Below are positions 44,661 to 64,000 of a stretch of 64,000 bases of DNA, in pieces (position 1 is the stretch's first letter; every line of letters begins with the position of its first letter). The notes under the pieces were generated by a model. The model was not told the DNA's origin. It did no database searches and saw only the letters and a list, made by a program, of their open reading frames with translations. Made by a program: the position numbers and the translations under genes. The DNA comes from Candidatus Latescibacterota bacterium (GTDB lineage: Bacteria > Latescibacterota > UBA2968 > UBA8231). The stretch is from the NCBI GenBank assembly GCA_965219385.1, contig CBDCNM010000001.1, forward strand, positions 794,631 to 858,630. Reading direction: 5' to 3'.

Positions 44661-45589
44661 GAAGCCGTTTTAAAATTCAGATTTGGGAGCGAGTCTCTTG
44701 ATCAAAAGGTGAATCATCGCAATGTAAATGAGCGCTTCGCTATTTCGGGTCAAGACTTCATAATCCTTGGAAAGGCGTCGAAAATTCAACAACCAAGCAA
44801 AGGTGCGCTCAACCACCCAGCGCCTTTTCATCCCCTCAAACCCCTTGCTTTCTCGTTGGACTACTTCCAAGTCAATTTTGTGCGTCCGCTTCAAACTTGA
44901 AACCCAGGTCTTCAAAGCGTCACCGCGATATCCACCATCGACCCATAGCTTGCGAAGACGCCGCAAGTTAGCCGCAAAATAGCGTTTGAGTAACTCCATC
45001 AACCCGGCCCGATCGGCCCAGGCAGCAGCAGATACAAATACACAGATCGGCAGGCCGAGGGTATCTACAAGGAGATGACGCTTGCGGCCATTGACTTTCT
45101 TTCCAGCATCGTAACCTTTTATTTTTCCTTGGGTTGTTGTCTTAATGCTTTGAGCGTCTACACGGCCTGCTGACGCGGTGGGCTTGCGACCCTGACCACG
45201 TCGCTCCCTTCGGCTTTGGGCCGGTTGGATCTTTTGGAAGATGCCTTGTTTGCTCCATCTGTTGAAATACCCATACACGGTTTGCCAGCATCCAAAAGCT
45301 TTGGGCAGCATGCGCCATTGACATCCTGTCTTGGTCCGATACAGGATGCCGTTGAACACGTGGCGTAGATTGACCGGTGGGCGACCAGGACAGCCAAGAC
45401 GCCATTGGGGTTTGGGCCGCAGCGTGAGGAGAAGTTGCCATTGCGTTTCGGTCAAATTTGTTGGATATTGCCTTTGCGTATTCATCTTTATCCTTTCGTT
45501 TCAGGTGGGTTAAAACAACCTGAATTTGGATAGATGAATACGCAATTTCAACTTTTTTCTTTACTCCTCTACCTTTTTAAAACAACTTC
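44661..45589 (-). mobile_element. IS5-family (IS1031-like) insertion sequence, single-ORF transposase 44670-45485
   Basis: TIRs GAAGCCGTTTTAAAA / GAAGTTGTTTTAAAA, TTA on both flanks; TGCQWRMLP, YDAGKKVNGRKRH, VDGGY, RWVVERTF. Confidence 0.93.
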
Positions 45590-48072: not shown

Positions 48073-49699
48073 TCAAGCGTCGAGGAGGGCTTTGGCGGCC
48101 TGCCGCGCCTCGTCCAGCGTTCCGACAACGCGATCCGGCGGAACATTCTGCAAGATGGCCAGGGTGTGCAGGATGTTCTCCACCGAGCCGGACAGACCCA
48201 TCACGATGAACTCGGTCTCCTCCCCCTTGGGCGACATCCATGAGTTGCTCTATGACCATGGCGGCGCTGTCGTCGAGGTAGGTGGCTTCCGAGAAGTCGA
48301 AGATGACGACCTCGTGATCCTTGATGTCCGCGCCGATCACCCCGACCAGCTTATTGGAGGAGGCCACGGTGAGACGCCCCCTGAGCACCACCAGACCGAC
48401 CCGCGCCGCGTACAGGTCCGCCTCGACAGCGTCTTCCTTTTCGGAGAAAAAGGTCTGGTCCAGCATCGGCACGGAGACCACGCTGTCGAGTTCCAGGCCT
48501 TCCAACTGCCGCGCGTTGGCCATGCCCGCGGCAATCAGCCCTATCGCCACGGCGGTTACCAGATCGACGAACACCGTAAGGCCCAGCGTGATCAGCATGA
48601 CCAAAAGATGTTCGCGCTGGATGCGGTGGACGCGGGCGAGCAGACGCCAGTCAATGATGTCCCAGCCGACCTTCATCAGGATGCCGGCGAGAACAGCGTG
48701 AGGAATCGGCTCGACGTATGGCCCAAGGCCCAGCACTAGCGCCAGCAGGAGTAGCGCGCGCAACGCGCCCGATAGCCCCGATAGCGGGGTCCGCCCGCCG
48801 GCGCGTATGTTGACCACAGTGCCCATGGTAGCCCCGGCACCGGGCAGCCCCCCGAACACCCCCGCAACCATGTTGCCGATGCCCTGCCCCACCAGTTCCC
48901 GGTTCGGGTTGTGGCGCGTGCCGGTCAGCGAATCGGCCACCAAGGAGGTGAGGAGGCTGTCTATGGAGCCGAGCAGGGCGAGAATGAGCGCTGGTTGCAA
49001 GGCATGCGCCAGGAAGCTGGCGGAAGGCAGCGCCAACTGCAAACTCGGCAGGCCGGTCGGTACTGGTCCGATGATGGGCGCATCGCTCAACCACAGCACC
49101 CCCAGCAGCGTGCCGACAATTAGCGCCATAAGGGGCGCGGGCAGGAATCGCGTCAACCGGCGCGGCCAGAGCACGCCCACAGCGAGCGTAACCGCGGCGA
49201 TGGCAAAGGCGCTGCTGTTGATATTGCCCACCACCTCGGGCACCGCGCCGATCGCGCCCATCGGTCCGCCCGGCGCGGTGGGCGCTCCGAGGAACGGCAA
49301 GGTCTGAATCAGCATGATGATGATGCCGATGCCGGACATGAAGCCGGAGATAACCACATACGGCGTGTAGGCCACGAAGCGGCCGATCCTCAATAGGCCC
49401 AGAAGCACCTGCAGCAGACCCCCCAGAACAACCACGGTCAAGGCTTCGGTGAGGTTGGTCGCGTGGCTGGTGACGATGACCGCCATGGCGACAGTCATCG
49501 GACCTGTGGGGCCGGATATCTGGGACCGCGTGCCGCCGAACACCGACGCGAAAAAGCCGACCGCGATGGCGCCGTATAGGCCGGCAGCCGCCCCCAGGCC
49601 CGACGCTACCCCGAAGGCCAACGCGACCGGCAACGCCACCACCGTTGCAGTGATGCCGCCAAAAACATCCCCGCGGAGTGTATGGAAATCGTAGTTCAT
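48073..49699 (-). pseudogene. SulP/SLC26 anion transporter with C-terminal STAS domain; +1 frameshift near 48225-48231
   Basis: GDVFGGIT...ALPVALAFG, QISGPTGPM, NRELVGQGIGN, STAS FDFSEATYLDDSA; removing one base restores ...EFIVMGL...TLDEARQAAKALLDA* ending at 48073. Confidence 0.88.
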
Positions 49700-49742
49700 G
49701 GCATCATATCCTTGACAATTAAGCCATTTTGAATATATATGC

Positions 49743-49789
49743 TATCTCCTTCGGGATGCAACAATATATCTCCTTCGGGATGCAACAAT
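49743..49789. repeat. 23-bp direct repeat, period 24 (TATCTCCTTCGGGATGCAACAAT)
   Basis: Copies at 49743-49765 and 49767-49789 between the divergent sulP and GPP34 genes. Confidence 0.95.
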
Positions 49790-49956
49790 TTTGTACTGCG
49801 CACCGGTGCGGTCAATTTCCCCAGGACGGTCTCCTCGGGGAACTTTTAGGCCCGGCGAAGCGGAAGGGGCAGCTGAACTTTCCGCGTGGGGTTCCGAGGT
49901 TGAGCTTGACGAAGCCCGAGCATGACAGTATCTTCCAACAAAATAAGGAATGGACG

Positions 49957-50613
49957 ATGCTGAGATTCCCCGAAGAACTCATGCTTCTCATCCTCGACGA
50001 CGAAAACGGGAAATTTGCGAGAGTGCCGGATCGGCTATTGCGTTACGCGCTCGCCGGAGGGGTGCTGATGGATCTGGCGCTGGAGAACCGTATCGACACC
50101 GATCTGAAGCAGCTTATCCTCGTCGATTCGAATCCTGTTCAGGACAGCCTGCTCGACCCGACGCTCGCCGACATATCCGAGGCGGCCGAGACCCGCGATG
50201 CGCGCTTCTGGGTGGAGCGCACCGCCCTCCGCAGCGCCGACGCCATTCGCCAAGAGGCGCTCGACCGGCTGGTAGAGCGGGGTATTCTGCAACGCAAGGA
50301 CGACCGATTTCTGTGGGTATTCCGGTCGCGGCGCTACCCGGTCATTGACGACCGAGCCGAACGGGAGGTCAAACTCAGGATTATGGAGATCTTGTTCAGC
50401 GACCAGATCCCTGGCCCGCGCGATGTGGTGATTATTGGCTTGGCGCACGCCTGCGACCTATTCGGACAGATACTGTCCGCCCGCGAACTGACGCACGTCG
50501 CCCCCCGCATTGATCAGGTGCGCCAGCTCGATTTGATCGGTCAGGCCATGTCGCAGGCGATCACGGACATCGAGTTATCGCTTGCCCTCGCGGTGCAGAT
50601 GAGACCATATTAA
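49957..50613 (+). CDS. GPP34 family (GOLPH3/Vps74-like) protein
   Basis: EELMLLILDDENG, ALAGGVLMDLALENRI, LVERGIL...FLWVF...RYP; AAGGA RBS. Confidence 0.8.
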   Translation: MLRFPEELMLLILDDENGKFARVPDRLLRYALAGGVLMDLALENRIDTDLKQLILVDSNPVQDSLLDPTLADISEAAETRDARFWVERTALRSADAIRQEALDRLVERGILQRKDDRFLWVFRSRRYPVIDDRAEREVKLRIMEILFSDQIPGPRDVVIIGLAHACDLFGQILSARELTHVAPRIDQVRQLDLIGQAMSQAITDIELSLALAVQMRPY

Positions 50614-50664
50614 GTATGTTGATACCCCACAGGCAATCACTTATAACCAACGAGACTTAGGGAG

Positions 50665-50997
50665 ATGGAAATTAACGTCGAACGCGAAAACGGAACCTTG
50701 ATCGCCCAAGTAGCAGGTCGGGTCGATAGCGCCAACGCCCGCCAGTTCGAGCAGGGACTCAGTGAGGCCATTGGCGACGACCGCAACGTAATCATCGATT
50801 TTGGCGGCCTTTCCTACATCAGCAGTTCGGGTCTGCGGGTCCTGCTGCTGGTGGCCAAGACGCTACGGCAGCGGTCGGCGCACTTGGCGCTGTGCTCGCT
50901 TGCGGGGCCGATCCGGGAGGTTTTCGAGATCAGCGGCTTCGACAAGATCATTCCGATCCACGACTCTCGGGCCGGCGCGCTGGCCGCCCTCGACTAG
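50665..50997 (+). CDS. STAS anti-sigma-factor antagonist (RsbV/SpoIIAA-like), copy 1
   Basis: GRVD, DFGGLSYISSSGLRVLL, VFEISGF. Confidence 0.93.
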   Translation: MEINVERENGTLIAQVAGRVDSANARQFEQGLSEAIGDDRNVIIDFGGLSYISSSGLRVLLLVAKTLRQRSAHLALCSLAGPIREVFEISGFDKIIPIHDSRAGALAALD

Positions 50998-51161
50998 CAT
51001 TTCGCTCGGCGCGCCGCCCGCAACCGGCGCTCCCTGGATCAGGGGGTCGGCGCCGGCGCTGGTGACCGATGCTCGGGCGAGCGCATAGCCGCCATTGACG
51101 ATCCACTGGCCGATCTCGCCCGCCGGCGCGCTGGCCCTAACCCCAATTCCCGAGCCACTAT

Positions 51162-52322
51162 ATGAAGCAAGTACCCTACAAGATCCTCGTGGTCGACGAT
51201 GAACCCGACCTCGAACACCTCGTGCGGCAGCGCATGCGCCGCGATGTGCGCGCCGGGCGCTACGCGTTCGCCTTTGCCCACAACGGCGTCGAGGCCCTCG
51301 AACGGCTCAACGAGGACCAGGACATCGACATGGTGCTCACCGACATCAATATGCCGCAGATGGACGGGCTGACCCTGCTCGAACAGATCCCCTCAGTCGA
51401 CCCCGACGTCCGCTCGGTGGTCGTCTCGGCCTATGGCGATATGAAGAATATCCGCACGGCCATGAACCGGGGCGCCTTCGACTTTGTCACCAAGCCCATC
51501 GACTTCCAGGATCTGCGGGTCACCATCGACCGCACCCTGCACCACCTGACTCTGTGGCGCGAAGCCCTGGCCTCGCGCGACCAATTGGTGGCGCTGCAAA
51601 ACGAATTGCGCGTCGCCCGCCAGATGCAGCAGTCGATCCTACCGACCCGCTTTCCCGAGCACGCCGACTATCAGGTCTTTGGCAATATGGAGCCGGCGCG
51701 CGAAGTGGGGGGCGATTTCTTCGATGTTATGACCCTGGAAAACGGCCGCCTCGGCCTGGCCATCGCCGATGTCTCCGACAAGGGCGTACCCGCGGCCTTG
51801 TTCATGATGTCCAGCCGCACGTTGCTCAAGGGCGCCGCCATCGGCGACCCGGACCCGGCCAAGGTGCTGGGCGAAGTAAACCAACTGCTGGAGCGCGACA
51901 ACGAAGCGGCGCTGTTCGTCACCATGTTTTACGCGGTGTTCAACCCGGCGAGCGGCGAACTGGTATATGCCAACGGCGGGCACAATCCGCCGCTGGTTGT
52001 CCATGCCGACGGAAGCTCGACCCTGCTGCCTCCAACCGACGGGATCGCCTTGGGCGTGATGCCGGATCTCGACTACGAGCAGAACGCGGTCACCTTGGTG
52101 CCCGGCGATGTCCTCGTGCTCTACACCGACGGGGTCACCGAAGCGATGAATAGCGACGACGAGGAGTTTGGCCTGGATCGTCTGCGGCAAGTATTTGCGG
52201 CGGAACGCTCGAATGATGCTCGCGCGGACAACCAAGCGGTTTTTGCCGCGGTACATGCGTTCGCCGGCGAAAGGCCCCAATTCGACGACATCACCTGCCT
52301 GACGCTGCGGTACGGCGAGTGA
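51162..52322 (+). CDS. Receiver domain + PP2C/SpoIIE phosphatase (RsbU/RsbY-like)
   Basis: ILVVDDE, TDINMP, FVTKP; VGGDFFD, IADVSDKG, YTDGVTEA, DDIT. Confidence 0.93.
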   Translation: MKQVPYKILVVDDEPDLEHLVRQRMRRDVRAGRYAFAFAHNGVEALERLNEDQDIDMVLTDINMPQMDGLTLLEQIPSVDPDVRSVVVSAYGDMKNIRTAMNRGAFDFVTKPIDFQDLRVTIDRTLHHLTLWREALASRDQLVALQNELRVARQMQQSILPTRFPEHADYQVFGNMEPAREVGGDFFDVMTLENGRLGLAIADVSDKGVPAALFMMSSRTLLKGAAIGDPDPAKVLGEVNQLLERDNEAALFVTMFYAVFNPASGELVYANGGHNPPLVVHADGSSTLLPPTDGIALGVMPDLDYEQNAVTLVPGDVLVLYTDGVTEAMNSDDEEFGLDRLRQVFAAERSNDARADNQAVFAAVHAFAGERPQFDDITCLTLRYGE

Positions 52323-52327
52323 GAGCC

Positions 52328-52759
52328 ATGAGCGCGAAACGGTCACTGAGCATTGCGACGGAAATCGGCGAGTTAGCGCGGATTAGCACTGCTGTCGAAG
52401 AACTGGGGCAGGCTGAGGATTGGCCTCCCGACCTCGTGTACCAAGTCAACCTCGTCCTCGATGAATTGGTCGTCAACATTATCAACTATGGGCACGAAGG
52501 CGACCCGAACCACGAGATTGAGATTGGATTGGCTTGGGAAGTGGACGCGCTCACCATTGAAATAGTGGACGACAGCCCGGCCTTCAACCCCCTGAGCGAC
52601 GCCCCCGAACCGGATTTGTCGTCGGCGCTGGAAGATCGTCGGGTGGGCGGTCTGGGCGTTTATCTGGTGCACACTCTGATGGACGAACTGCACTACCGGC
52701 GCGAACAGGATCGCAACCACTTGACCCTGATCAAGCAGATCAAGCGGCGGAATGGCTGA
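52328..52759 (+). CDS. RsbW/SpoIIAB-like anti-sigma serine kinase, copy 1
   Basis: LDELVVNIINYG N-box, DDSPAFNP, GGLGVYLV...MDE. Confidence 0.92.
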   Translation: MSAKRSLSIATEIGELARISTAVEELGQAEDWPPDLVYQVNLVLDELVVNIINYGHEGDPNHEIEIGLAWEVDALTIEIVDDSPAFNPLSDAPEPDLSSALEDRRVGGLGVYLVHTLMDELHYRREQDRNHLTLIKQIKRRNG

Positions 52760-52788
52760 GGTAGGTGCGCCTTTCAGGTGCTATGCCT

Positions 52789-52916
52789 AAGGCGCGCTCT
52801 CGACCTGCACCGCAATGATGTCCAGGTCGTGGTATTTCTGGTGCCGCACCGAAGCGGCGTAGTGCCGCAACAGGCGAAACGAAATCTCGCGTTCGTCCAC
52901 TATCTCGGGCTGTTCG
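52789..52916 (-). repeat. 128-bp direct repeat of 56001-56128 (3' end of the NCS2 fusion gene)
   Basis: One mismatch by manual comparison; carries its own stop codon (TAG here, TGA in the full gene). Confidence 0.95.
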
Positions 52917-52918
52917 AT

Positions 52919-54064
52919 ATGACCAGAAAAACCATACGTACATTAAAGATCGAAAACTTCAAGAGCATTGACTCTTTAGAAGTAAAGGGGCTTGCCCCCT
53001 TTTCGGTATTCGCGGGAGCGAATGGCTCGGGCAAGAGCAATTTCTTTGATGCACTGGACTTTGTCAGCCTCTTTGTGCGCGGCGGGATTGAAATCGCGCT
53101 GCGCGAGCATGGGGGCTTTGCAAATATACATTCGGCGAAGCGTTCTGCTCCGAATTCCAAAAAGTTCAGTTTTGAACTCAAATGCGATCTTCTGAAACAG
53201 CAGGAAGAAACGCCGACGACGTTTCACTATTCGTTGAGCATTGACGACCTCGACACCCGCAAACCCGAAATCGAAGAATACTTATTCTTCAATGGGAGAC
53301 GACTTATCGTTCATCGGAGGGGGGACGAAGAAGTGAGCTTTGATGTGGAAAAATTTCCCGATCGGTTTTTCGTCGCGGCCATTCATTCGGCGCTATCACT
53401 TTTACCAAATCATCCGCTTACCGAACTCCTGAGAAATTTGAATGTGTACCGGATTGATCCTACGGGTGCAAAGGAGCCGGATAAATCCGACCTTGATCCA
53501 ACGCAGTTAGAGCGCAAGGGGCACAATCTGGCGAGTGTCTTGCGTCGCTTAGAGCGAAATCGAGCGATACACGAAGACATTCTAGACTGGATGGAGATGA
53601 TTGTCCCAGGGATCGAGAAGATTCAGACCGAACAGCAGAGACTAGACAGTAGAACCGCCCTGCTGTTTAAGGAGAAAGGGACGAGGAAGCAGTTTCCAGC
53701 ACATCTAGTTTCAGACGGGACGATGTACGCGCTCTGTTTACTGGTCGCCGTGCTCGACACGCCTTCAGGTTGCGGAATGACGTTGATTGAGGAGCCGGAA
53801 AGAGGGCTGCACCCCAAGGCCATCCGCGAGCTGATAGATTTGATGCGGCAGCAGGCTTCGCCTGAAAATCCCATTTGGTTGACCACCCATAGCGAATCGG
53901 TTGTTCGAGCCCTCAATCTCGGCGAACTTATTCTCGTGGATAAGGTTGAAGGCCGCACTACAATGAAGTCGGCCGATGCTGGGAACATCTCCCAAGAGGA
54001 CCTTGCTCCACTGAGTCTTGATGAGGTGTGGCTCTCGAACCTTCTGGCCGGGGGGCTGCCATGA
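52919..54064 (+). CDS. AAA_21/AbiEii-type ABC ATPase
   Basis: IENFKSI, GANGSGKSN, VSDGT, IEEPERGLHP, TTHS. Confidence 0.9.
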   Translation: MTRKTIRTLKIENFKSIDSLEVKGLAPFSVFAGANGSGKSNFFDALDFVSLFVRGGIEIALREHGGFANIHSAKRSAPNSKKFSFELKCDLLKQQEETPTTFHYSLSIDDLDTRKPEIEEYLFFNGRRLIVHRRGDEEVSFDVEKFPDRFFVAAIHSALSLLPNHPLTELLRNLNVYRIDPTGAKEPDKSDLDPTQLERKGHNLASVLRRLERNRAIHEDILDWMEMIVPGIEKIQTEQQRLDSRTALLFKEKGTRKQFPAHLVSDGTMYALCLLVAVLDTPSGCGMTLIEEPERGLHPKAIRELIDLMRQQASPENPIWLTTHSESVVRALNLGELILVDKVEGRTTMKSADAGNISQEDLAPLSLDEVWLSNLLAGGLP

Positions 54065-54703
54065 TGACTGTGGGGTTCGTGGTGGAAGGGGCTTCAGAAA
54101 AGCGGCTGGTCGAAAGTGAATTGTTTCAGAAATGGCTGCGTGAGGATTGCAACCTGGAAGTGATCGATCCAGTGGTTGATGCGGCTGGCAATGGCAATAT
54201 GTGCAGTCGTAACATTGGAGCTTTCGTCAAGAATCTCAGGACGAGGACAAGTCCGGACAAGGTGGTTGTGCTTGCCGACCTCGATCCCGATACCTGTGCG
54301 CCGTGCGTGCAAAAGCGCAAGACGATCATTGGTTGTCAGGGAATTGACTTGGTCGCGATTGCGAAGAAGGCGATTGAATCCTGGTTTCTCGCCGATACGA
54401 AGGCCATGTGCCAATGGTTGGGAGACAACACCTTCTGCGAGGTTGACCCGGAAACGCTAACTGGAATGCCTTGGAATCGGCTAAAGGAGCTTGGCCGCCA
54501 AAGTAAAAAGGGTAGAGGGCCGGGGAGCACCAAGACTGTTTTTGCCAGAAAGTTCATTTAGAGATTGCAGGTTTGAGGTCAGACGAGCAGCTCGGCACGC
54601 TAACTGCCCCAGTGCTCGTTATTTTGTCGAACGGCTCTGTGCGTTGGGCCGCAACGATTTAATACTACGAAGGGAGAAGCTATGGCCACGACATCCTCAG
54701 TGA
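54061..54703 (+). pseudogene. TOPRIM-like (DUF4276/RloB-like) ATPase partner; +1 frameshift near 54558
   Basis: FVVEGASE, LADLD, IESWFLAD; ATT-T-AGA gives an early stop, next frame continues ...NCPSARYFVERL. Confidence 0.65.
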
Positions 54704-54713
54704 GTTACCAGCC

Positions 54714-55825
54714 GTGAAAACCGATCTCCGTCCGGGTCTGCTCGATTCTCTGGCTCCAGACAGGATCGAGGATTTCATCACGAAGGCATTCTGCTGGATA
54801 TTGTCGAACACCGGGTTCGGCGCACGCTTTCTCGACTACCTTTGCGAGAAGGGCATCAGTCTGCCGGCTCTTAACAGGGCGACGCTGCGGTGGGAGACCC
54901 AGACATCGTTCCCGCGGGGAGGAGGCAAGTGGCCCGTCCGTCCCGACATGACCTGCTCGGATGGAAAGCGTGGGATTGTCTTCGAACACAAGGCTTGGTC
55001 TTGGCTGCGAGAAGATCAGCTTGGCGATTACAAGAACCACGCGCCGCCGCCGTTCAATGAGGCGCCGATGGTTCTAATTACCGCGCATCGCGGACAGCAT
55101 CAGCAGGAGCCGGATCTGGGGCTGTGCTGGTATCAGATTCATGAACTTCTTGGGGAATGGTTGCAGTTGCAGTCTGAAAGCTACGATCCGGTGGTGCATT
55201 TCGTAGTCGAGGATTTTCAGACACTGCTTAAGAGGAAAGGACTCGGACCGATGCACAAGTTGGAACAGAAAGCCATCGAGAGCCACTTCCTTGTGGCCGA
55301 CTTGCACGAAAATTTGGAAAAGATGATGTGGGCCGTGCTTGGCAAGGAATGGCCAGATACGGCCGAGAGGCAGGTCGACAACCAATGGGGCCGCCGGGGT
55401 TTCCAGGTGCGGGCGAGCGGAAAGATGCGACCACTTGGAACCCCGGCCTGTTCGTCGGTGTTCTCCTGGATGGATGGGATCATTGCACAAAACCCGTGGA
55501 TCGAAACCGCGGCCCGGACGCTTGTGTCATTCTCAATCTCGGCGAGGATCTGCATCCAGCGGCAGCAGTTCCCGCTTACCAGCAGCTGGTGACGTACCTG
55601 AAGTCCGAGAAGTTTCCGGATGGCTGGACGTTTTACGATCATGCCGGGGACAAGAAGGTCCGGAAGCCAAATCCATGGCACCCGTTTCATATAAGGTGTC
55701 CACTGGTCGAAGTTCTTGATGGGGCCCAGGAACCGGAAGAGCAGATCAACCAGTTCTACAAGGACGCTCACGAGGTTGTCCGGCTGGTTCTTGAGCATCC
55801 GTCCCTGAAGAAGTCCTGGACCTGA
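54714..55825 (+). pseudogene. PD-(D/E)XK nuclease-like protein, frameshifted near 55415
   Basis: EDFITKAF, WETQ, RPDM, VFEHK, DQL..Y; C-terminal part lies in ORF 55328-55825. Confidence 0.65.
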
Positions 55826-55998
55826 GCTTGGTGGTTCGCTCCTGTTCTGATCCTTCGGTTCCTTTGGCCGAAAGGTGGTGGGAGTGGGGCGCAGACGCAG
55901 TCTGAAGGTATGAGTCCGGGGTGGCCCGAACCGTTAGTTAGCCCCGGCCGCTCTGGCGTCGAATCGCTTCGTGTAACGTGAGGGTCACAGGCGGGCTG

Positions 55999-57729
55999 TC
56001 AAGGCGCGCTCTCGACCTGCACCGCAATGATGTCCAGGTCGTGGTATTTCTGGTGCCGCACCGAAGCGGCGTAGTGCCGCAACAGGCGGAACGAAATCTC
56101 GCGTTCGTCCACTATCTCGGGCTGTTCGCTCAAGTACGCCAGCCGGTCTTCGAGATTGTCCCCTGAGGTAGCCGCCAAAAACTCCAGCTCCGCCGCCCCT
56201 TCGGCGAGTCGTGCGGTGAGGATCAAGTGCCGTCCGTCGGCGGCTGCATCGTCCTCAGCTTGTTGTATCAGAATCGCCAGGGTCTCTTCCCCTGCGGCGC
56301 GCAACCGCTCGGTCGCCGGGTCGTCCCAGCCGATTTTCGCGGCAAAGGCGCGGAGGAACTCGTCGATCTTGGGCAGCGAGGCGACATCTAACTCGATCTC
56401 TAGACGTCGGCGGCGCGGCGCCGTCAGCTCCATGAACGCGGTCAGCAAGATCGCGGCAAGACCCCCAGCGGTCATGCCGTTGCCGAGCAAGGTGCCCCAC
56501 GTCTTGCCCAGCAAATCGGCGAAGATCACCTGATTCTGAAAGCCCACGCCAATCCAGAACGACAGCCCCACCACCGCGGCCTTGCGGTAATTGAGACCGT
56601 TCTCGACGACCAGCTTCATACCCTGTACAAAGAGCAGGCCTATTAGCAGGGTTACATAGGCCGCGCCCACGGGGTTGGGAATGGCGATCAGGAGGGCTGT
56701 CACCTTGGGCGATAAGGCCAGTACCGCAAAGATGCTCCCGATATACACTCCGACGCGGCGCGCGGCGACCCCGGTGAGTTCGGCGAGCGATATACTGGTC
56801 GAGTAGGTCGTATTGGGGGGCGTCCCGGCGAGCCCGGACAACAGGTTGCCCATCCCGTCGGCGTTGAGAGCGCCCTGGACCAGGCGAAAATCGGTTGCCC
56901 GCGGCCGGCGCCGCGAGACCTGTTGAATGGCAACGCCGTCGCCAATGGTCTCGATCGCGCCTACTAAGGTAACGACCACAAACGCCGGCAACAGCGCCCA
57001 GAACTCTGCACTGAACGTCAGATCCAATCCCGGCCATGCGCTATCGGGAAGACCGATCCAAGGGGCTTCGATTACGGGCTGAATGTCGTATAATCCGAAG
57101 GGGGCGGTCACGGCGCAGCCCACCGCGATGCCGATGAGCGGTGCCCACAGCCGCCAAGCCACTGGAGCGCGCAACGCCAGCACCACAAGAGTAGCGAGCG
57201 TCGCCCCGGCCGCGGCCGGGGCCGCGGCCGGGGGCGTGGCCCCGGGCACATCCGCCAGCAAGTCGAAAACGATCGGCATGACCGTGACGGCGATCAGCAT
57301 GATCACCGTGCCGGAGACGACCGGCGTGATGATCCGGCGCAGCAGCGAAAGCCGTGCGGCCAGGACAAACTGAAACAGCGACGAAACGACGATCAGGCTC
57401 GCCATCAGGGCCGGTCCACCCTTCACCAGTGCCGTGATGCAGACCGCGATGAAGGCGCCGGAGGTGCCCATGATGAGCACGTGCCCGGCCCCGATCCGCC
57501 CGACCCGGACCGCTTGCAGAACCGTGCTCACTCCACTGATCATTAGCGCCGCGAAGGCGATCCAGGTCAGGTAGCTCGCCGGCTGGTCGGCCGCCCGGCC
57601 AATAATGACCGCGCTGAGCACCACCGGTGCCAGGACGACCACCGCGGCCTGAAAGCCGACCCCAGCGGCGACTGAGTGGGGGGGCCGCTCGTCCGGCTCG
57701 TAGCGGATGTTTTCATTGACATGTGCCAT
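55999..57729 (-). CDS. NCS2 (xanthine/uracil permease-like) transporter fused to a degenerate RsbW-like HATPase domain
   Basis: RIGAG..LIMGTSGAF, TPVVSGTVIMLI, IETIGD, ADGMGNLLSGL, NTTYS; soluble tail SLPKIDEFL...RLRAAGEETL...ISFRLLRHYA; GAGGTGG RBS. Confidence 0.85.
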   Translation of the reverse strand: MAHVNENIRYEPDERPPHSVAAGVGFQAAVVVLAPVVLSAVIIGRAADQPASYLTWIAFAALMISGVSTVLQAVRVGRIGAGHVLIMGTSGAFIAVCITALVKGGPALMASLIVVSSLFQFVLAARLSLLRRIITPVVSGTVIMLIAVTVMPIVFDLLADVPGATPPAAAPAAAGATLATLVVLALRAPVAWRLWAPLIGIAVGCAVTAPFGLYDIQPVIEAPWIGLPDSAWPGLDLTFSAEFWALLPAFVVVTLVGAIETIGDGVAIQQVSRRRPRATDFRLVQGALNADGMGNLLSGLAGTPPNTTYSTSISLAELTGVAARRVGVYIGSIFAVLALSPKVTALLIAIPNPVGAAYVTLLIGLLFVQGMKLVVENGLNYRKAAVVGLSFWIGVGFQNQVIFADLLGKTWGTLLGNGMTAGGLAAILLTAFMELTAPRRRRLEIELDVASLPKIDEFLRAFAAKIGWDDPATERLRAAGEETLAILIQQAEDDAAADGRHLILTARLAEGAAELEFLAATSGDNLEDRLAYLSEQPEIVDEREISFRLLRHYAASVRHQKYHDLDIIAVQVESAP

Positions 57730-58019
57730 TCAGCCACCTCTTCTCAGACCTGGCTCGAAAAAGGATTAGTACTACTTTGTTAATTGGCGGATAACGTGCT
57801 CATTGGTCCACTATTTTTGCCTATTTTGGTCGCAATCTTTCGGCCAATACCGATCAGGATTTGTGCTGTAAGGTCCGAAGAAACAGCGCATTACCCCAAA
57901 CAGATCGCTTTCAAGCCTTTCGATAACCTGCTGAAAAATAGGGACTTATGGGACCAGCACTCCTAATCAACAAAGTAATATTAGGACAGATAAACGACCT
58001 TATCGGTAGTTAGGTCAAG

Positions 58020-58438
58020 TAAATTTTGGGCGATTTTGCCGCAGCCTTTGGGTGATCGGGGTGGGGTCACTTGACTTCGCTGTGCAGATGAGGCCATATT
58101 AACTATAATGGGCACGACGGCGACCCGACCCACGAGATCGAGATCGTCTTGGCTTGGGACGCGGACAGGCTCACCATCGAGATGGTGGACGACAGCCCGG
58201 CCTTCAACCCCCTGGACGACGCCCCCGAACCCGATTGATGTCCAGGTCGTGATATTTCTGGTGCCGCACCGAAGAGGCGTAGTGCCGCAATAGGCGGAAC
58301 GAAATCTCGCGCTCGTCCACTATCTCGGGCTGTTCGCTCAGATACGCCAGCCGGTCTTCGAGATTCTCCCCCTCGGAAGCGGCCAAAAACTCTAGTTCCG
58401 CCGCCCCTTCGGCGAGCCGTGCAGTGAGGATCAAGCGC
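58020..58438. repeat. Collapsed mosaic copy of the partner-switching module
   Basis: 58020-58105 matches 61420-61505 and in part 50581-50613; 58108-58235 is an internal RsbW fragment; 58236-58438 matches ~56028-56230 of the NCS2 fusion. Confidence 0.88.
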
Positions 58439-58730
58439 CGCCCGCGCTGGTCTGCCCGGAAGGCCTTGCCGAAAAATTACTTTTCTGTTTCGGTATTCCG
58501 AATTTCGCCGTTCCCCTCTGAAATTCGGAATTTTAGGGCGTGAAAAGGAAAACTTAAATTTCGGCAGAGCCGGAAGAGATCTGGTAGCATCCATGACGGT
58601 CGAGAATCCGGAGCGCATTATCCGGGAGCCATCTGATCGGCGATTAGGCGGTGGAGGAGTACTGCAGCGAGGAGCCGTTCCACAATCTGGACTGAATCGG
58701 TCCTCTGGGAGGCAACGCGCCAGCGCTGCA

Positions 58731-61295
58731 ATGCGGCGGGCGTTTCCACATCGGCTTTTGGGATCCGCAAGCGCCTTCCTGCTCCTGGCGACTACCGGTC
58801 CGGCGAGCATACATGCCCAGGAAGGATGTCTCCCTCTCGCCTCATCGCACGCCGTCTCGATCAACGAATTTCTGGCCTCCAATATCCGCACCAACCCCGA
58901 CCTGGACTTCGGTGAGTACTCCGACTGGGTGGAGTTGCAAAACCGCGAGGATTTCTGTGTGGATCTAAGCGGTTCCCAGTTGACGGATGATATGGAGGAG
59001 TTCTGGTCCATTCCCGCCCGGGCCATCATTCCCGCCCGGGGATTCCTTCTGTTGTGGGCAGATGGACGGGATACCACCGCACTGAGCTACCACGCCAACT
59101 TCAGATTGGATAAGGATGGGGAAACCGTTGCTCTTGTGAACCCGAACCGCACCGTGGTGGATTCGGTCTCCTATCCGGAGCAGGAGACGGATGTATCCTA
59201 CGGCCGGGCGCCGAATGGACAGGGCTGGTTCTACCTGGCGGATCCGACGCCGGGGGGCGAAAATAGCGGCGGTCTTCACACCAATACGGAAACGGCTGCT
59301 CCACCGGAGTTTTTTCCGCGAGGGGGATTCTGCGAACCGGCGCAGGAGATCGCCATCGAACCTGAAGTCGACGGAGGCATGATACACTACTCGACAGACG
59401 GCTCGATTCCCACTCATCGATCACCCCGCTACCTCTCCCCCATCCGGTTGTTCAGCACGACGGTTTTGCGCGCCCGCACCTACCATCGGGATCGCCTGCC
59501 GAGCGCAACGGTCACACAGACTTATCTGGTCGGCGAACCCCGACACCTGCCCGTCGTCTCTTTGGCCACCAACCCGGACAACTTGTGGGATCCGTACGCC
59601 GGCATTTACGTCCTCGGCGAAAACGGAGTGCCGCGGCTGCCGGGAGAGGAGATCGTAGCCAACTTCTACCAGGATTGGGAGCGGCCTTTCAACCTGGAAT
59701 TCTTCGACGCAGCCGGCGAACAGCGGATCAATCAGCCGGTCGGCGCCAAGGTCTCCGGTTTTTCGAGCCGGGGGTTCGAGCAGAAATCCCTCTCCATCTT
59801 CGCCCGCCGCCGCTACGGCAAGGATCATATCGACTACCGCATGTTCCCGGGTAAGAGCATCGAGCGCTTCAGACGCTTTCTCCTGCGCAACTCGGGGAAC
59901 GACCACACCCAGACTCAGTTTCACGACGGCATGACGCAGAGCTTGATCGCCGGGAGAATGGACCTGGACTACCAGGCCTACCAGCCGGCGGTGACGTTCA
60001 TCAACGGCAACTACTGGGGTATCATGAACGTGCGGGAGAAGATGGACGACTACTACCCCGAATCGAACTACGGCATCGACCACGAGGACGTCGAGATCGT
60101 CGATATGGATCACGGACGCGGATTGCCCCACCCGGAGCACTACGAAAATCTGCTGGATTTCATTCGCAACAACAGCGAACGGAAAAGCGAGAACTACGAG
60201 TACCTGAAAACCCAGTTGGATATGGATGCGTTCATCGACTACTACATCTTCTTTCTGTTCATAGCCAACAACGACTGGCGTCTCTCCTATGCCAACTCCA
60301 AGGCTTGGCGGCCCCAATCGGAGGGCGGCCGCTGGCGCTGGCTGGTGTTCGACACGGACGGAAGCTTCGGACAATCTGAAAAATCCGCCTATACAAAGAA
60401 CGACATCGAAGTGAGGGTGCCGTCCTTCTTCCTCAACCATCTCATAAACAATTCCAGTTTCAGGCACGAGCTGATCCAGCGCTTTGCCGCGCATCTGAAC
60501 AGCACCTTCGTTCCCGAACGCGTCATCGGCATCATAGACAGCCTCCAGGCCGCGATCGAGCCAGAGATGCCCCGGCACATCGAGCGCTTTCACCATCCGG
60601 CGGACATGGATGCCTGGCGTGAATTCGTGGAGGTGAGGAGAGAGTTTGCCCGTCGCCGGCCGCGCCACATCCGCCGGCACATCATGGATTATTTATCGAT
60701 TGCCGATACCGCCCGCATCAATCTGCAGGTGTCGCCTTCCGGCGGTGGCGCGATCGCCGCCCACGGCGTGGCCATGCCGAACGGCGCCGGCGCGGGGCTG
60801 TATTTTTCGGGCCTGCCCCTGCGACTGAAGGCCACACCGAACATCGGCTTTCGGTTCGCCGGTTGGAATGAAACCTCCCCAGACGCCCCGGACTCCCTCA
60901 TTCACCTCGTCACCGCCGCCGATACGATTACTGCGCTGTTCACGCCGGTCCGCCTGGGAACGCTGATCACCGGCGAGTTCATGGACCGCAACGATTCCGT
61001 TGCGAATCGGAACCCGAGAGTATTTGCCCTGCACCAGAATTCTCCCAACCCGTTCAATTCGTCCACTTCGATTCGCTATTCTCTCGCCACTGGCGCGGCA
61101 GTGACGATCTCTCTCTACAACCTCGGGGGCCAGAAACTGCTCACCTTCAGGCTGGGCAGGCAGCCGGCGGGGGACCATTTCATTCGATGGGACGGCAAGG
61201 ATCGGAAGGGGGCCGCCTTGGCGTCCGGGTTGTATCTGTACGAACTGCGCGCCGGCGGATTCAGGCAGGTGCGCCAGATGCTTCTCCTCAAATAG
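58731..61295 (+). CDS. Secreted CotH-kinase family protein with lamin-tail, Fn3/chitobiase-like and FlgD-Ig-type C-terminal domains
   Basis: INEFLASN...DWVEL, HYSTDGSIP, QKSL, LRNSGND, NNDW...WRWLVFDTD, FALHQNSPNPFNSST...WDGKD...SGLYLY; start may be 58593. Confidence 0.85.
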   Translation: MRRAFPHRLLGSASAFLLLATTGPASIHAQEGCLPLASSHAVSINEFLASNIRTNPDLDFGEYSDWVELQNREDFCVDLSGSQLTDDMEEFWSIPARAIIPARGFLLLWADGRDTTALSYHANFRLDKDGETVALVNPNRTVVDSVSYPEQETDVSYGRAPNGQGWFYLADPTPGGENSGGLHTNTETAAPPEFFPRGGFCEPAQEIAIEPEVDGGMIHYSTDGSIPTHRSPRYLSPIRLFSTTVLRARTYHRDRLPSATVTQTYLVGEPRHLPVVSLATNPDNLWDPYAGIYVLGENGVPRLPGEEIVANFYQDWERPFNLEFFDAAGEQRINQPVGAKVSGFSSRGFEQKSLSIFARRRYGKDHIDYRMFPGKSIERFRRFLLRNSGNDHTQTQFHDGMTQSLIAGRMDLDYQAYQPAVTFINGNYWGIMNVREKMDDYYPESNYGIDHEDVEIVDMDHGRGLPHPEHYENLLDFIRNNSERKSENYEYLKTQLDMDAFIDYYIFFLFIANNDWRLSYANSKAWRPQSEGGRWRWLVFDTDGSFGQSEKSAYTKNDIEVRVPSFFLNHLINNSSFRHELIQRFAAHLNSTFVPERVIGIIDSLQAAIEPEMPRHIERFHHPADMDAWREFVEVRREFARRRPRHIRRHIMDYLSIADTARINLQVSPSGGGAIAAHGVAMPNGAGAGLYFSGLPLRLKATPNIGFRFAGWNETSPDAPDSLIHLVTAADTITALFTPVRLGTLITGEFMDRNDSVANRNPRVFALHQNSPNPFNSSTSIRYSLATGAAVTISLYNLGGQKLLTFRLGRQPAGDHFIRWDGKDRKGAALASGLYLYELRAGGFRQVRQMLLLK

Positions 61296-61563
61296 GGCTT
61301 GAAGGGCCGGCGCCGGTCCGTTTGTGCCAAGGTGCTGAATTCTCATGAACGAAGCCACAGCGCATATAGAAGCGTTTCAGTCCGCGCTGGGGCTGAAGAA
61401 GCTTCCTTTCGTGTACGGTAAATCTGGGGCGGTTTTGCCGCAGCCTTTGGGTGCTCGGGGTGGGATCCCTTGCCCTCGCTGTGCAGATGAGGCCATATTA
61501 GCTATAGGCTGATACCACACAGGCACTTACTCACAATCAACTAACCAACGAGACTTGGGAGCC

Positions 61564-61896
61564 ATGGAAATTAACGTCGAACGCGAAGACGGCACCTTGA
61601 TTGCCGAGGTGAAAGGCCGGGTCGACAGCGCCAACGCCCGCGAATTCGAGCAGACGCTCAGTGCGGCTATCGGCGACGACCGCAACGTTCTTATCGATTT
61701 TGAGGGTCTTTCCTACATCAGCAGTTCGGGTCTGCGGGTCCTGCTGCTGGTGGCCAAGACGCTGCGGCAGCGGTCGGCGCACTTGGTGCTGTGCTCGCTT
61801 GCGGGGTCGATTCGGGAGGTTTTCGAGATCAGCGGCTTCGACAAGATCATTCCGATTCACGGCTCCCGGGCCGAGGCGCTGGCCGCGCGCGGCTAG
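61564..61896 (+). CDS. STAS anti-sigma-factor antagonist, copy 2
   Basis: Near-identical paralogue of 50665-50997; YISSSGLRVLL. Confidence 0.93.
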   Translation: MEINVEREDGTLIAEVKGRVDSANAREFEQTLSAAIGDDRNVLIDFEGLSYISSSGLRVLLLVAKTLRQRSAHLVLCSLAGSIREVFEISGFDKIIPIHGSRAEALAARG

Positions 61897-62040
61897 GCTT
61901 TGGCTCGGAGCGCCGCGCTGCGCGCTGAACCTGCGCCCTTTGATCGGGGGAGCGGCGCATGCGCTGGGTGAACCATGCTCAGGTGGGTGGAAGGTCGGAA
62001 CCCTAACCTCAAGCCCTCATCCATCTTACACTATGAATAT

Positions 62041-62169
62041 ATGACGCAAGTGCCCTGCAAGATTCTCTTGGTCGAGGTTTTCCAGGCGGTGCACGCATTC
62101 GCCGGCGAAAGGCCCCAATTCGACGACATCACCTACCTGACGTTGCGCTACAGCGGGCGAGAGCCATGA
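62041..62169 (+). pseudogene. Internally deleted copy of the REC-PP2C phosphatase
   Basis: MTQVPCKILLV joined in frame to VFQAVHAFAGERPQFDDITYLTLRY, i.e. the first ~11 and last ~28 residues of the 51162-52322 paralogue. Confidence 0.88.
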
Positions 62170-62588
62170 ACGCGAAACGATCCTTGCGCATTGCGACGGA
62201 AATCGGCGAGTTGGCGCGGATTCACGCCGCGGTGGAGGAACTGGGGCAGGCCGCGGCTTGGCCGCCCGACCTCGTGTACCAGGTCAACCTCGTCCTCGAG
62301 GAGTTGGCCGTCAACATTATCAACTATGGGCACGCCGGCGACCCGAGCCACGAGATCGAGGTCGTCTTGGCTTGGGAGGCGGACCGGCTCACCATCGAGA
62401 TGGTGGACGACGCCCCGGCCTTCAATCTCCTGGACGACGCCCCCGAACCGGATTTGTCGTCGGCGCTGGAAGATCGTCGGGTGGGCGGTCTGGGCGTTTA
62501 TCTGGTGCACACCTTGATGGACGAACTGCCCTACCGGCGCGAGGAGGGCCGCAACCACCTCACCCTGATTAAGCGGAGGAAGGGATGA
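62166..62588 (+). CDS. RsbW-like anti-sigma serine kinase, copy 2
   Basis: LEELAVNIINYG, DDAPAFN, GGLGVYLV; close paralogue of 52328-52759. Confidence 0.92.
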   Translation: MNAKRSLRIATEIGELARIHAAVEELGQAAAWPPDLVYQVNLVLEELAVNIINYGHAGDPSHEIEVVLAWEADRLTIEMVDDAPAFNLLDDAPEPDLSSALEDRRVGGLGVYLVHTLMDELPYRREEGRNHLTLIKRRKG

Positions 62589-63748
62589 GGGGCGTGGTCG
62601 CCTTGCTCGCCGCGCTCGCTGCGGCTGTGGGGATTGGCGCCGAAGAGAGCGGCATCTCCGACCAGCGCATCCTCTTTGGCCAGTCCGCGGCCTTTAGCGG
62701 TCCCGCCCAGGAACTGGGCAAGAATATGCGGCGCGGCATCCAGGCGGCCTTTGCGGAGGCCAATCGGCAAGGCGGTGTCCACGGCCGGCAGTTGGAACTG
62801 CGGTCTCTCGACGACGCCTACGAACCCGAAGCCGCCATTGCCAACACCCGCCAACTGATCGAGCAGGAGGGGGTTTTTGCGCTGATCGGCGCCGTTGGCA
62901 CGCCCACTTCTCGCTCGGCCACTCCCGTGGCCGCAGCCGTCGGCGTGCCCTACATCGCTCCCTTTACGGGTGCCGCCTTCCTGCGCCAGGCAAAGTGGCG
63001 CAACGTGATCAACCTGCGGGCCTCCTACGACCAGGAGACCGAGGCCATGGTCGCCCGCTTGACCGCGGACCTGGGCATTGAGCGCATCGCCGTGATGTAC
63101 CAGGACGACTCCTTTGGTCGGGCCGGGTACCGCGGGGCGCGGCAGGCGCTCGAGCGACGCGGCATGAAGCCGGTGGCAATCGGGGTGTACCCGCGCAATA
63201 CCACGGCGGTGAAGACGGCCCTGCTCGACCTGCGCAGCGCTACCCCCGACGCAGTGATCTTGGTCGGGGCCTACCAGCCGGTGGCGGCGCTGATCGCCTG
63301 GGCGCGGCACACGGGTTGGGAGCCCGTCTTCATAACCATCTCCTTTGTGGGCAGCAATGCGTTGGCCAGGAAACTCGGTCGCGCCGGCACCGGGGTTTTC
63401 GTCACCCAGGTGGTACCCTTTCCGACCAATGACACCCCCCCGGTCATCGCCTCCTACCGCCGAGCCCTAGCGGCCCACGCGCCCGAAGCCGCGCCCGGTT
63501 TTGTCTCCTTGGAAGGCTACTTGGCGGGTCGGTTGGCCATTGCCGCCCTCGAACGCTGCGGCCAAGAGGTCGATCGTGCTCGCTTTCTCGAGAGTTTGCG
63601 CGGCGCCGATCTCATCGACCTCGACGGCTTTGAACTCCGCTACGGCGCCGACGACAACCAGGGTTCGGACGCGGTCTTCCTCACCGCGATCGGCAACGAT
63701 GGCGCGTACCACCCCATCAATACGCTGCGGGAGGCGATGCAGCCATGA
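62585..63748 (+). CDS. Periplasmic ligand-binding protein (LivK-like family)
   Basis: Signal peptide, GQSAAFSGPA, DDAYEP, VGTPTS, RASY, SLEGY; ATGA overlaps at both ends. Confidence 0.9.
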   Translation: MRGVVALLAALAAAVGIGAEESGISDQRILFGQSAAFSGPAQELGKNMRRGIQAAFAEANRQGGVHGRQLELRSLDDAYEPEAAIANTRQLIEQEGVFALIGAVGTPTSRSATPVAAAVGVPYIAPFTGAAFLRQAKWRNVINLRASYDQETEAMVARLTADLGIERIAVMYQDDSFGRAGYRGARQALERRGMKPVAIGVYPRNTTAVKTALLDLRSATPDAVILVGAYQPVAALIAWARHTGWEPVFITISFVGSNALARKLGRAGTGVFVTQVVPFPTNDTPPVIASYRRALAAHAPEAAPGFVSLEGYLAGRLAIAALERCGQEVDRARFLESLRGADLIDLDGFELRYGADDNQGSDAVFLTAIGNDGAYHPINTLREAMQP

Positions 63749-64000
63749 CTGGCCTACTGAAACGCCTGCTCGAGGGCCGCTTCCGCATCTCGGCGCAACT
63801 CTACTTGGGCATCGGCGGTGCCGTCGTCCTCACCATGGGCGCGAGCCTGGTCGGCTGGTTCTCCTTCAACGAGGTGGGCGATGCCCAGCGCCGCGTCAAC
63901 GAGGACAGCGTCCCAGAGATGGCGGCCGCTTTCGGAGTCGCTCAGCAAAGCGGCACCCTGACCGCGGCGGCCCCGCGCCTGACAGCCGCGTCCACACCGG
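63745..64000 (+). CDS. Membrane sensor with TorS-like N-terminus, 3'-partial
   Basis: MTGLLKRLLEGRFRISAQLYLGIGGAVVLTMGASLVGWFSFNEVGDAQRRVNEDSVPEM...; one TM helix then helical periplasmic region; open to window end. Confidence 0.65.
   Translation, partial: MTGLLKRLLEGRFRISAQLYLGIGGAVVLTMGASLVGWFSFNEVGDAQRRVNEDSVPEMAAAFGVAQQSGTLTAAAPRLTAASTP

Follow-up and report, generated by a model that had tools for sequence, protein, structure and literature searches.

Among the closest described relatives of the system considered here are the partner switches of Bacillus, RsbU-RsbV-RsbW-sigma B and SpoIIE-SpoIIAA-SpoIIAB-sigma F (6m36/6m37, 1tid, 1l0o), in which a PP2C phosphatase, a phosphorylatable STAS protein and a GHKL serine kinase work alongside a sigma factor. 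Sigma-independent switches also exist. HptB-HsbR-HsbA of Pseudomonas aeruginosa and SypE-SypA of Vibrio fischeri are fed by two-component signalling via a protein that joins a receiver domain to a PP2C phosphatase (REC-PP2C), and their output is exerted through whatever the STAS protein binds. To our knowledge, the outputs of sigma-less partner switches are mostly unknown. Here we describe a locus in a 64,000-nucleotide stretch of DNA from a Latescibacterota-type genome (the window), which encodes the same three types of protein as the Bacillus systems but has no nearby sigma factor and a phosphatase under the control of a receiver domain. It forms a transporter island, with this sigma-less module duplicated around the gene for an NCS2 permease that itself ends in an RsbW-like domain. 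Unlike the Pseudomonas and Vibrio switches, the system has a separate kinase and phosphatase, its input is a binding protein with a TorS-type kinase, and its proposed output is the tail of a carrier.

Carriers with appended regulatory domains, such as SulP-STAS proteins and CBS-bearing exchangers, are known as well. In the SulP/SLC26 carriers with a C-terminal STAS domain, which include SLC26Dg, DauA and BicA, the STAS domain is thought to stabilise or regulate the dimer. The NCS2 fusion resembles them in that a carrier, presumably of 7+7 helices, leads straight into a cytoplasmic domain from the partner-switch repertoire; here, however, the appended domain has the fold of RsbW, the kinase or anti-sigma partner, instead of that of STAS, and the carrier is of the NCS2/SLC23 type by Pfam. 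A further precedent is MlaB, the STAS subunit of the MlaFEDB lipid transporter, in which a STAS protein binds and tunes a transporter, although MlaB contacts the ABC ATPase rather than an RsbW-fold domain and the E. coli system has neither kinase nor phosphatase. A review of STAS proteins treats SulP-STAS and soluble STAS proteins separately (PMC8256260). No account of a carrier with an RsbW-like domain, or of a switch tied to NCS2 or Amt, was found in the full-text literature searched, most subscription journals lying outside it, and within that literature the permease subfamily is undescribed.

The permease gene (55999-57729, minus strand) encodes 576 residues, of which 1-435 constitute the carrier (Pfam Xan_ur_permease, E = 1.5e-45) and 436-576 the RsbW-like tail (56002-56424). 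Genes were identified from a listing of open reading frames (ORFs) and from Pfam and NCBIfam scans. The carrier matches PF00860 over residues 24-397 with 156 bits, against a cut-off of 27, but the protein falls below the NCBIfam cut-offs for both TIGR00801 (ncs2; 191.3 against 291.8 bits) and TIGR03173 (pbuX; 209.6 against 414.15 bits). Since the general cut-off is passed and the two specific ones are missed, the profile scores place the permease in a divergent NCS2 subfamily, the substrate of which should not be assumed.

It is the fold of the tail, rather than its sequence, that identifies it. Against PF13581 (HATPase_c_2) the tail scores 15.2 bits (E = 0.022), short of the cut-off of 27.4, and only four of 51 aligned tails from many phyla match this profile at E ≤ 1, the best at 0.009. 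A profile of the 51 tails retrieved nothing from the sequences of the PDB but a chance match (E = 0.56), and hhalign gave a probability of 10% when the tail was compared with a local RsbW alignment. By contrast, an AlphaFold model of residues 436-576, made from the same 51-sequence alignment (predicted local distance difference test, pLDDT, 81; predicted template modelling score, pTM, 0.77), has the order strand, two helices, two strands, two helices, two strands, which is the small GHKL fold of the RsbW type. In a Foldseek comparison with the PDB its best matches were UsfX (E = 9.5e-8), SpoIIAB and RsbW, with E-values from 9.5e-8 to 5.5e-6 and TM scores of about 0.62-0.70. An all-against-all VIA search of 48,161 chains gave Z scores of 15.6 for UsfX, 15.1 for RsbW, 14.6 for the RsbW domain of Rv1364c and 14.4 for SpoIIAB (103-122 residues, root-mean-square deviation 1.8-2.7), so that the Bacillus proteins RsbW and SpoIIAB share the fold at Z 14-15. 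Lower scores were obtained for SiaB (11.9), LvrC (10.8) and the ATP domains of histidine kinases (at most 7.3). Because Z is 14-16 for the former group and no higher than 7.3 for histidine kinases, the predicted fold is specifically that of the STAS-binding serine kinases. The model thus identifies the tail as a genuine RsbW/SpoIIAB-fold domain and bears out the proposal, made in the original prediction from the DNA sequence, that the C-terminus of the permease is RsbW-like.

A model of the full-length permease, of low confidence (mean pLDDT 56, pTM 0.46, 14-sequence alignment), repeats the secondary structure of the tail and puts about three residues between the last membrane helix at 409-436 and the first strand of the tail at 440-446. 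In the ESM Atlas the nearest clusters are unnamed; 15% of the members of one, at a score of 0.92, carry HATPase_c_2. Within the 51 tails, 19 positions are invariant and 24 nearly so, and these include the motifs RLRxAGEETL, ENLEDRLAYL and RLLRHYAxSVRHQKYH. In the low-probability hhalign alignment, N53 of the soluble kinase RsbW1 is paired with Ile or Ser and D84 with Ala, the glutamate preceding the N-box is kept, and the conserved EREISFRLLRHY segment of the tail contains no Gly. Thus, unlike RsbW and SpoIIAB, the tail appears in this weak alignment to have lost the ATP-binding Asn, Asp and Gly. We infer that it is a pseudokinase, and because those residues appear lost, it would not be the kinase half of a switch.

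The fusion of an NCS2 carrier to this RsbW-like domain is real, conserved and found in a large family. A search with the tail region retrieved at least 2,716 proteins at E ≤ 0.001 from 8,000 candidates scored; the relatives listed nearly all have 570-590 residues and a Xan_ur_permease domain, and those with a name are called hypothetical or NCS2 permease. A stand-alone family of tails was also considered and rejected. The 120 best short matches are 48-89% identical to the tail, and they look like fragments of fusions, because many carry Xan_ur_permease or are marked partial; no separate stand-alone family was found among these 120. In species-representative genomes at least 552 stretches matched and at least 546 encode a relative. 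The best 80 of these loci, which form the survey described below, come from Latescibacterota, Gemmatimonadota, Opitutales, Binatia, Dehalococcoidia/Chloroflexota, Alpha- and Gammaproteobacteria, Acidobacteriota and Acidimicrobiia. In the window's phylum the fusion is present in 60 of 151 sampled genomes, in up to five copies, with 22 of 63, 19 of 30 and 18 of 19 genomes in three families; it was not found in 38 genomes of 11 other families of the phylum. Permeases 78-91% identical to that of the window occur in records labelled Latescibacterota, Gemmatimonadota and Opitutales (L001-L021, L032), and such identity across labels suggests either transfer between phyla or uncertain binning.

The first copy of the switch module, on the plus strand, consists of a single-domain, phosphorylatable STAS protein of the anti-anti-sigma type (STAS1, 50665-50997; Pfam STAS 6.1e-22, TIGR00377 5.5e-22), the REC-PP2C phosphatase (51162-52322; SpoIIE 3.5e-56, Response_reg 3.5e-25) and the RsbW-type serine kinase RsbW1 (52319-52759; HATPase_c_2 4.9e-26), the start of which overlaps the phosphatase stop by 4 nt. 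The second copy, on the same strand, has STAS2 (61564-61866), 89% identical to STAS1 by tblastn and repeat search, a remnant comprising the last 26 codons of a REC-PP2C gene (62077-62154; tblastn, 88% over 26 residues) and RsbW2 (62166-62588; HATPase_c_2 5.6e-25), which is 83-84% identical to RsbW1. It continues with a Peripla_BP_6 binding protein (62585-63748; Pfam 2.8e-62), the gene for which overlaps that of RsbW2 and that of a sensor kinase by 4 nt each. The kinase gene begins at 63745 and runs past the window end at 64000; its full product has 713 residues with a TorS_sensor_domain (PF21689; 6.6e-9, 36.1 bits against a cut-off of 27), HAMP, HisKA and HATPase_c. The pairing of genes for a binding protein and for a kinase with a TorS-type periplasmic domain recalls TorT-TorS; unlike TorS, the kinase has neither a receiver nor an Hpt domain, and its binding protein belongs to the Peripla_BP_6 class (amides, urea or amino acids). 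The soluble components of the switch are intact. S53 and S54 of STAS1 do not vary among 63 homologues, the gene for REC-PP2C is complete, and both RsbW1 and RsbW2 retain kinase motifs; in RsbW1, E49, N53, D84 and G110-G113 are invariant in alignment A3, so that N53 and GGLG are kept. All the genes named by the original prediction, namely those for the soluble STAS, REC-PP2C, RsbW-like, SulP-STAS, NCS2, GPP34, binding and TorS-like proteins, were recovered by Pfam and NCBIfam where it had placed them.

No sigma factor accompanies this module, as had been noted for the window. Sigma70_r2 is absent from the window, and of its 15 matches in a whole-genome search the nearest on the contig lies 54 kb past the window end. 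The DNA beyond the window was also scanned on both sides for large ORFs, and none of these encodes a sigma factor. Only one further PP2C/RsbW pair was seen in the genome by tblastn. Related switches elsewhere have a constant core and a changing carrier. In ten STAS loci that lie far from the permease in other, related genomes, REC-PP2C, RsbW, binding protein and kinase follow one another in that order with STAS alongside (10/10), and tblastn with the window's proteins found no NCS2, SulP or GPP34 gene in any of them. An Amt gene adjoins STAS in five of the ten, and the remaining five have a gene for a Na_H_Exchanger-CBS carrier between those for STAS and PP2C. Since all ten keep the module without NCS2, SulP and GPP34, the conserved unit is the sensing and switching module, and the carrier that adjoins it or is enclosed by it varies. 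That a sigma-less switch is found around transporters hints that it acts on them.

How often the permease keeps such company was determined in the 80 loci by profile searches of all ORFs of at least 60 residues, followed by correction with Pfam, a gene being counted as near when within 10 kb. Matches to the PP2C profile in L028, L036 and L076 were dropped from the counts, being receiver domains only (REC-LpxC or NarL-type regulators). A partner-switch, SulP or GPP34 gene is near the permease in 16 of the 80 loci, 14 of them in the window's own clade. REC-PP2C, RsbW or STAS is near in ten: STAS in seven (L007, L010, L013, L015, L032, L047, L077), RsbW in five and REC-PP2C in eight (L007, L008, L010, L011, L013, L015, L019, L032). 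GPP34 is near in nine loci and SulP in seven. The conserved linkage of the fusion to SulP, GPP34, STAS, PP2C and RsbW that had been anticipated is therefore not general, being confined to a minority of the loci (10 for the switch genes, 9 for GPP34, 7 for SulP).

Within this minority the arrangements differ. In the window, L007 and L010 a module copy flanks the permease on each side; in two Opitutales loci (L013, L032) the permease has the module 5 kb upstream; in L008, L011, L015 and L019 it directly follows, on the same strand, a paralogous operon of REC-PP2C, binding protein and kinase; and in another clade a different STAS paralogue (40% identity) stands alone directly upstream (L047, L077). 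Because several arrangements recur and STAS proteins are few in each genome (one to six matches), we take the linkage between permease and switch as real but lineage-limited.

In the window the region is rearranged. The segment 52790-52915, which begins 30 nt past the rsbW1 stop, repeats the final 42 codons of the permease gene exactly (tblastn, 100% over 42 residues), and it belongs to a 128-nt direct repeat (52789-52916, minus strand; family D4) that is 99% identical to the true 3' end of the gene at 56001-56128. The block between the two repeats has a G+C content of 0.55-0.56, against 0.62 on either side. A second remnant (58019-58444, mixed strands; repeat families D3, D4, D5 and D6) contains one copy of an 89-nt repeat (58019-58107), an internal rsbW fragment on the plus strand (58098-58295) and, beside it on the minus strand, a piece of the permease 3' region (58237-58443; residues 499-567, 93% identical); the other copy of the 89-nt repeat, at 61418-61506, begins the second module. 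The earlier observation that NCS2 3' ends lie next to rsbW in two module copies is thus correct (tblastn, repeat search), and the sequences indicate that these copies are duplication scars around two insertions. With the insertions removed, the order becomes that of L007 and L010, in which sulP, GPP34, STAS, PP2C and RsbW converge on the permease, and STAS, RsbW, binding protein and kinase diverge from it. As these two loci show the same order without the insertions, the 3' ends beside rsbW record an ancestral junction at which rsbW and the NCS2 gene converge.

These observations can be combined in a scheme in which a free STAS protein docks on the dead kinase domain of the permease, as the output of a sigma-less switch. 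The binding protein and the TorS-like kinase would sense a periplasmic solute, leading to phosphorylation of REC-PP2C, which would then remove the phosphate that RsbW1 and RsbW2 place on the STAS proteins. Free STAS could then dock at either of two sites that share a fold, namely the soluble kinase or the inactive kinase domain beneath the permease dimer, and docking on the latter would alter substrate uptake; the tail would thereby fill the place held by the sigma factor in Bacillus. In family members with no switch nearby, the tail might rely on STAS from another locus, or work by itself in regulation or dimerisation. STAS docking on the permease is the mechanism that we prefer, albeit one with somewhat less than an even chance of being right. 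The stronger claim, that the dead anti-sigma-kinase fold is the carrier's built-in regulatory domain and that the phosphorylation state of STAS gates uptake directly at the protein level, seems rather doubtful. On this view, adjoining Amt or Na+/H+ carriers may be further targets of the switch in related genomes. If the scheme holds, uptake would be gated by a STAS protein choosing between a soluble kinase and a permease tail, and the permease family offers a concrete, testable candidate for the output of sigma-less partner switches.

A number of findings weigh against STAS docking. Linkage is the minority state, with STAS within 10 kb of the permease in only seven of the 80 loci. All 22 genomes of the window's clade have a STAS orthologue (57-83% identity), yet it lies within the permease locus in only four of them; a fifth has a 42% identical paralogue there. 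When the nearest chosen ORF of at least 85 residues on each side of the permease was scanned with Pfam in 59 more distant loci, none of the 116 ORFs was STAS, HATPase_c_2, SpoIIE, SulP or GPP34, although the STAS ORFs in L047 and L077, recovered by the profile search, escaped this selection. A six-frame Pfam search of 30 distant genomes found STAS in all 30, but by comparison of coordinates none lies in the permease locus, the nearest being 76 kb away in a single-chromosome record. In the permease tree (FastTree, midpoint-rooted, 78 rows; L067 and L077 were left out, having fewer than 500 residues, and L031 has no qualifying tail ORF) every full context belongs to a single clade (L001-L021, L032 and the window), with a patchy distribution that fits inherited synteny being lost. 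Tails from loci that lack a nearby switch are just as conserved, and the core function of the tail therefore needs no adjacent switch. Lastly, the alignment to RsbW behind the apparent loss of ATP-binding residues has an hhalign probability of only 10%.

The alternative that survives best is that the tail is an autonomous cytoplasmic domain, serving dimerisation, stability or the sensing of a metabolite in the former nucleotide pocket, and unrelated to STAS proteins, much as STAS serves in SulP or CBS in other carriers; proximity to the switch would then reflect shared regulation of nitrogen-solute uptake or inherited gene order. Its likelihood also falls somewhat below one half, and we rate it and STAS docking about equally. 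The equal conservation of the tail in the 59 loci without adjoining switch genes favours an autonomous function, as does the retention of the switch without the permease in 10 of 10 other genomes. Invariant polar residues of the tail fall, as judged from alignments, in the segments that form the nucleotide pocket of RsbW-type kinases, and the neighbours in these loci are amidases, amidohydrolases, hydantoinase B, creatininase, DUF1330 and luciferase-like oxygenases, or a cluster of alpha/beta hydrolase, phosphopantetheinyl transferase and polyketide synthase. Nevertheless, an autonomous tail does not readily explain why linkage to the switch, or to a STAS gene alone, occurs in at least four arrangements and two clades, which is more than expected at one to three copies per genome, nor why the fold is specific to STAS-binding kinases and not that of generic GHKL domains. 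On either account, the tail defines a conserved domain beyond the coverage of Pfam.

A less probable explanation, which we regard as unlikely, is that the target of the switch is a sigma factor or some other regulator whose gene lies elsewhere, SulP, NCS2 and Amt being merely neighbours or members of the regulon. The intact kinase motifs of RsbW1 and RsbW2 would suit such a role, the genome has Sigma70_r2 matches to serve as targets, and the presence of only one other PP2C/RsbW pair also favours it. Set against this are the distance of 54 kb to the nearest such match, with none among the large ORFs on either side, and the composition of the ten orthologous loci, all of which show only switch, binding protein, kinase and transporter (tblastn with the window's proteins, no sigma-factor scan having been made there).

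The SulP carrier bears on the remaining alternative. Its gene (48073-49699, minus strand; Sulfate_transp E = 1.2e-80) encodes an SLC26-type protein with a C-terminal STAS domain, and the frameshift within STAS that had been noted is confirmed: orthologues of 538-540 residues align end to end by tblastn across a break, in frame -1 as far as 48224 and then in frame -2 between 48228 and 48076. The break is a one-base change at a run of five G (48224-48229), and the STAS match in the broken frame scores 19.2 bits. Logan contigs of runs X3 and X5 are identical to the window at the G run (depth 8.7 and 11.1), whereas those of X4 and X7 have one base fewer at 48229 (depth 27.6 of 27.6 and 7.7 of 7.7). 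The two orthologue frames meet when that base is absent, so the X4/X7 form has an open frame, and intact and frameshifted sulP both occur in public data. The window itself may derive from X3 and X5, and for this reason their agreement is not independent proof of the frameshift. The STAS domain of SulP has Asp-Asp where the soluble STAS proteins have the invariant Ser-Ser, so by its residues it is not a kinase substrate of the usual kind. In the Bacillus proteins, Asp at the phosphoserine site mimics the phosphorylated, non-binding state.

That the STAS domain of SulP binds the RsbW-like tail of NCS2, making two same-fold carriers the halves of a membrane-bound switch, as the original prediction had it, is very improbable: the folds are those of known binding partners and a divergent GPP34-sulP pair adjoins the permease in seven of the 80 loci, with GPP34 alone in two more, but this pairing is confined to one clade apart from a Chloroflexi locus that has only GPP34, the ten orthologous switch loci lack SulP, the STAS domain of SulP has Asp-Asp at the Ser-Ser position, and this genome's sulP is frameshifted in an allele that nonetheless persists in contigs of two runs. 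What stands of that proposal is the RsbW-fold tail, the conserved fusion and the lack of a nearby sigma factor; what tells against it, besides the Asp-Asp of SulP and the absence of SulP and GPP34 from the switch loci, is a tail that appears to lack the ATP-binding residues.

The GPP34-family gene (49729-50613, plus strand; PF05719, E = 9.3e-46, 156.9 bits against a cut-off of 29.1) is divergent from sulP. Its true start is probably later than 49729, because the Pfam match begins only at residue 81; the homologues in most related loci have 214-237 residues. GPP34 is enriched in sponge symbionts, including Latescibacterota and Gemmatimonadota, according to the main text of one study, which mentions neither SulP, STAS, permease or sulfate nor the gene neighbours (PMC11706023). 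The permease family also marks uptake systems in uncultured lineages, which according to that study share GPP34.

By analogy with its neighbours across the family, the substrate of the permease is suggested to be a nitrogen-rich heterocycle or a related compound. Clustering of all the chosen ORFs gave no neighbour common to more than 18 loci. In ten loci of Chloroflexota, Terriglobia and some Latescibacterota (L042, L053, L055, L057, L067, L068, L070, L072, L074, L079) the permease converges on the alpha/beta hydrolase and phosphopantetheinyl transferase genes, and in most of these a carrier protein and a polyketide synthase of 2,500 residues come next. Neighbours in the window's clade include a Tsx-like channel, a major facilitator (MFS) carrier and a eukaryotic-type carbonic anhydrase; in L012, L016 and L018 the genes upstream of the permease encode a carbonic anhydrase of the alpha class, an sCache protein, an MFS carrier and a channel with weak similarity to Tsx (E = 3.3e-5), and the GPP34-sulP pair is downstream in some. 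In the window's own genome an Amt ammonium transporter (L081 2477-3913; Ammonium_transp 7.8e-100) directly follows the sensor kinase, beyond the window.

The inserted block beside the permease (about 52934-55592, plus strand) contains ORFs for an AAA_21 ATPase (52778-54064; 1.3e-28 from residue 75), a DUF4276-like protein (54028-54561) and a product of 292 residues (54714-55592). The first two match a PADLOC candidate defence pair, HEC-01A (3.5e-137) and HEC-01B (1.2e-57). Between the two 89-nt repeats, separating the module remnant from the second module, lies the gene for a protein of 900 residues with CotH kinase, lamin-tail (LTD), Fn3-associated and FlgD-Ig domains (58593-61295, plus strand; CotH 1.5e-42, LTD 1.4e-13). 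Upstream of sulP are ABC-transporter genes, and an IS4/5-family transposase (DUF4096 and DDE_Tnp_1; 44670-45485) interrupts their cluster just before it. In other genomes of the phylum, too, short fragments of the permease 3' end are found at a distance of a few kb from the complete gene (G190:C1:2513887-2513982, G106:C3:583572-583670, G111:C1:1485812-1486114), and the end of the permease gene may be a recurrent site of insertion or duplication.

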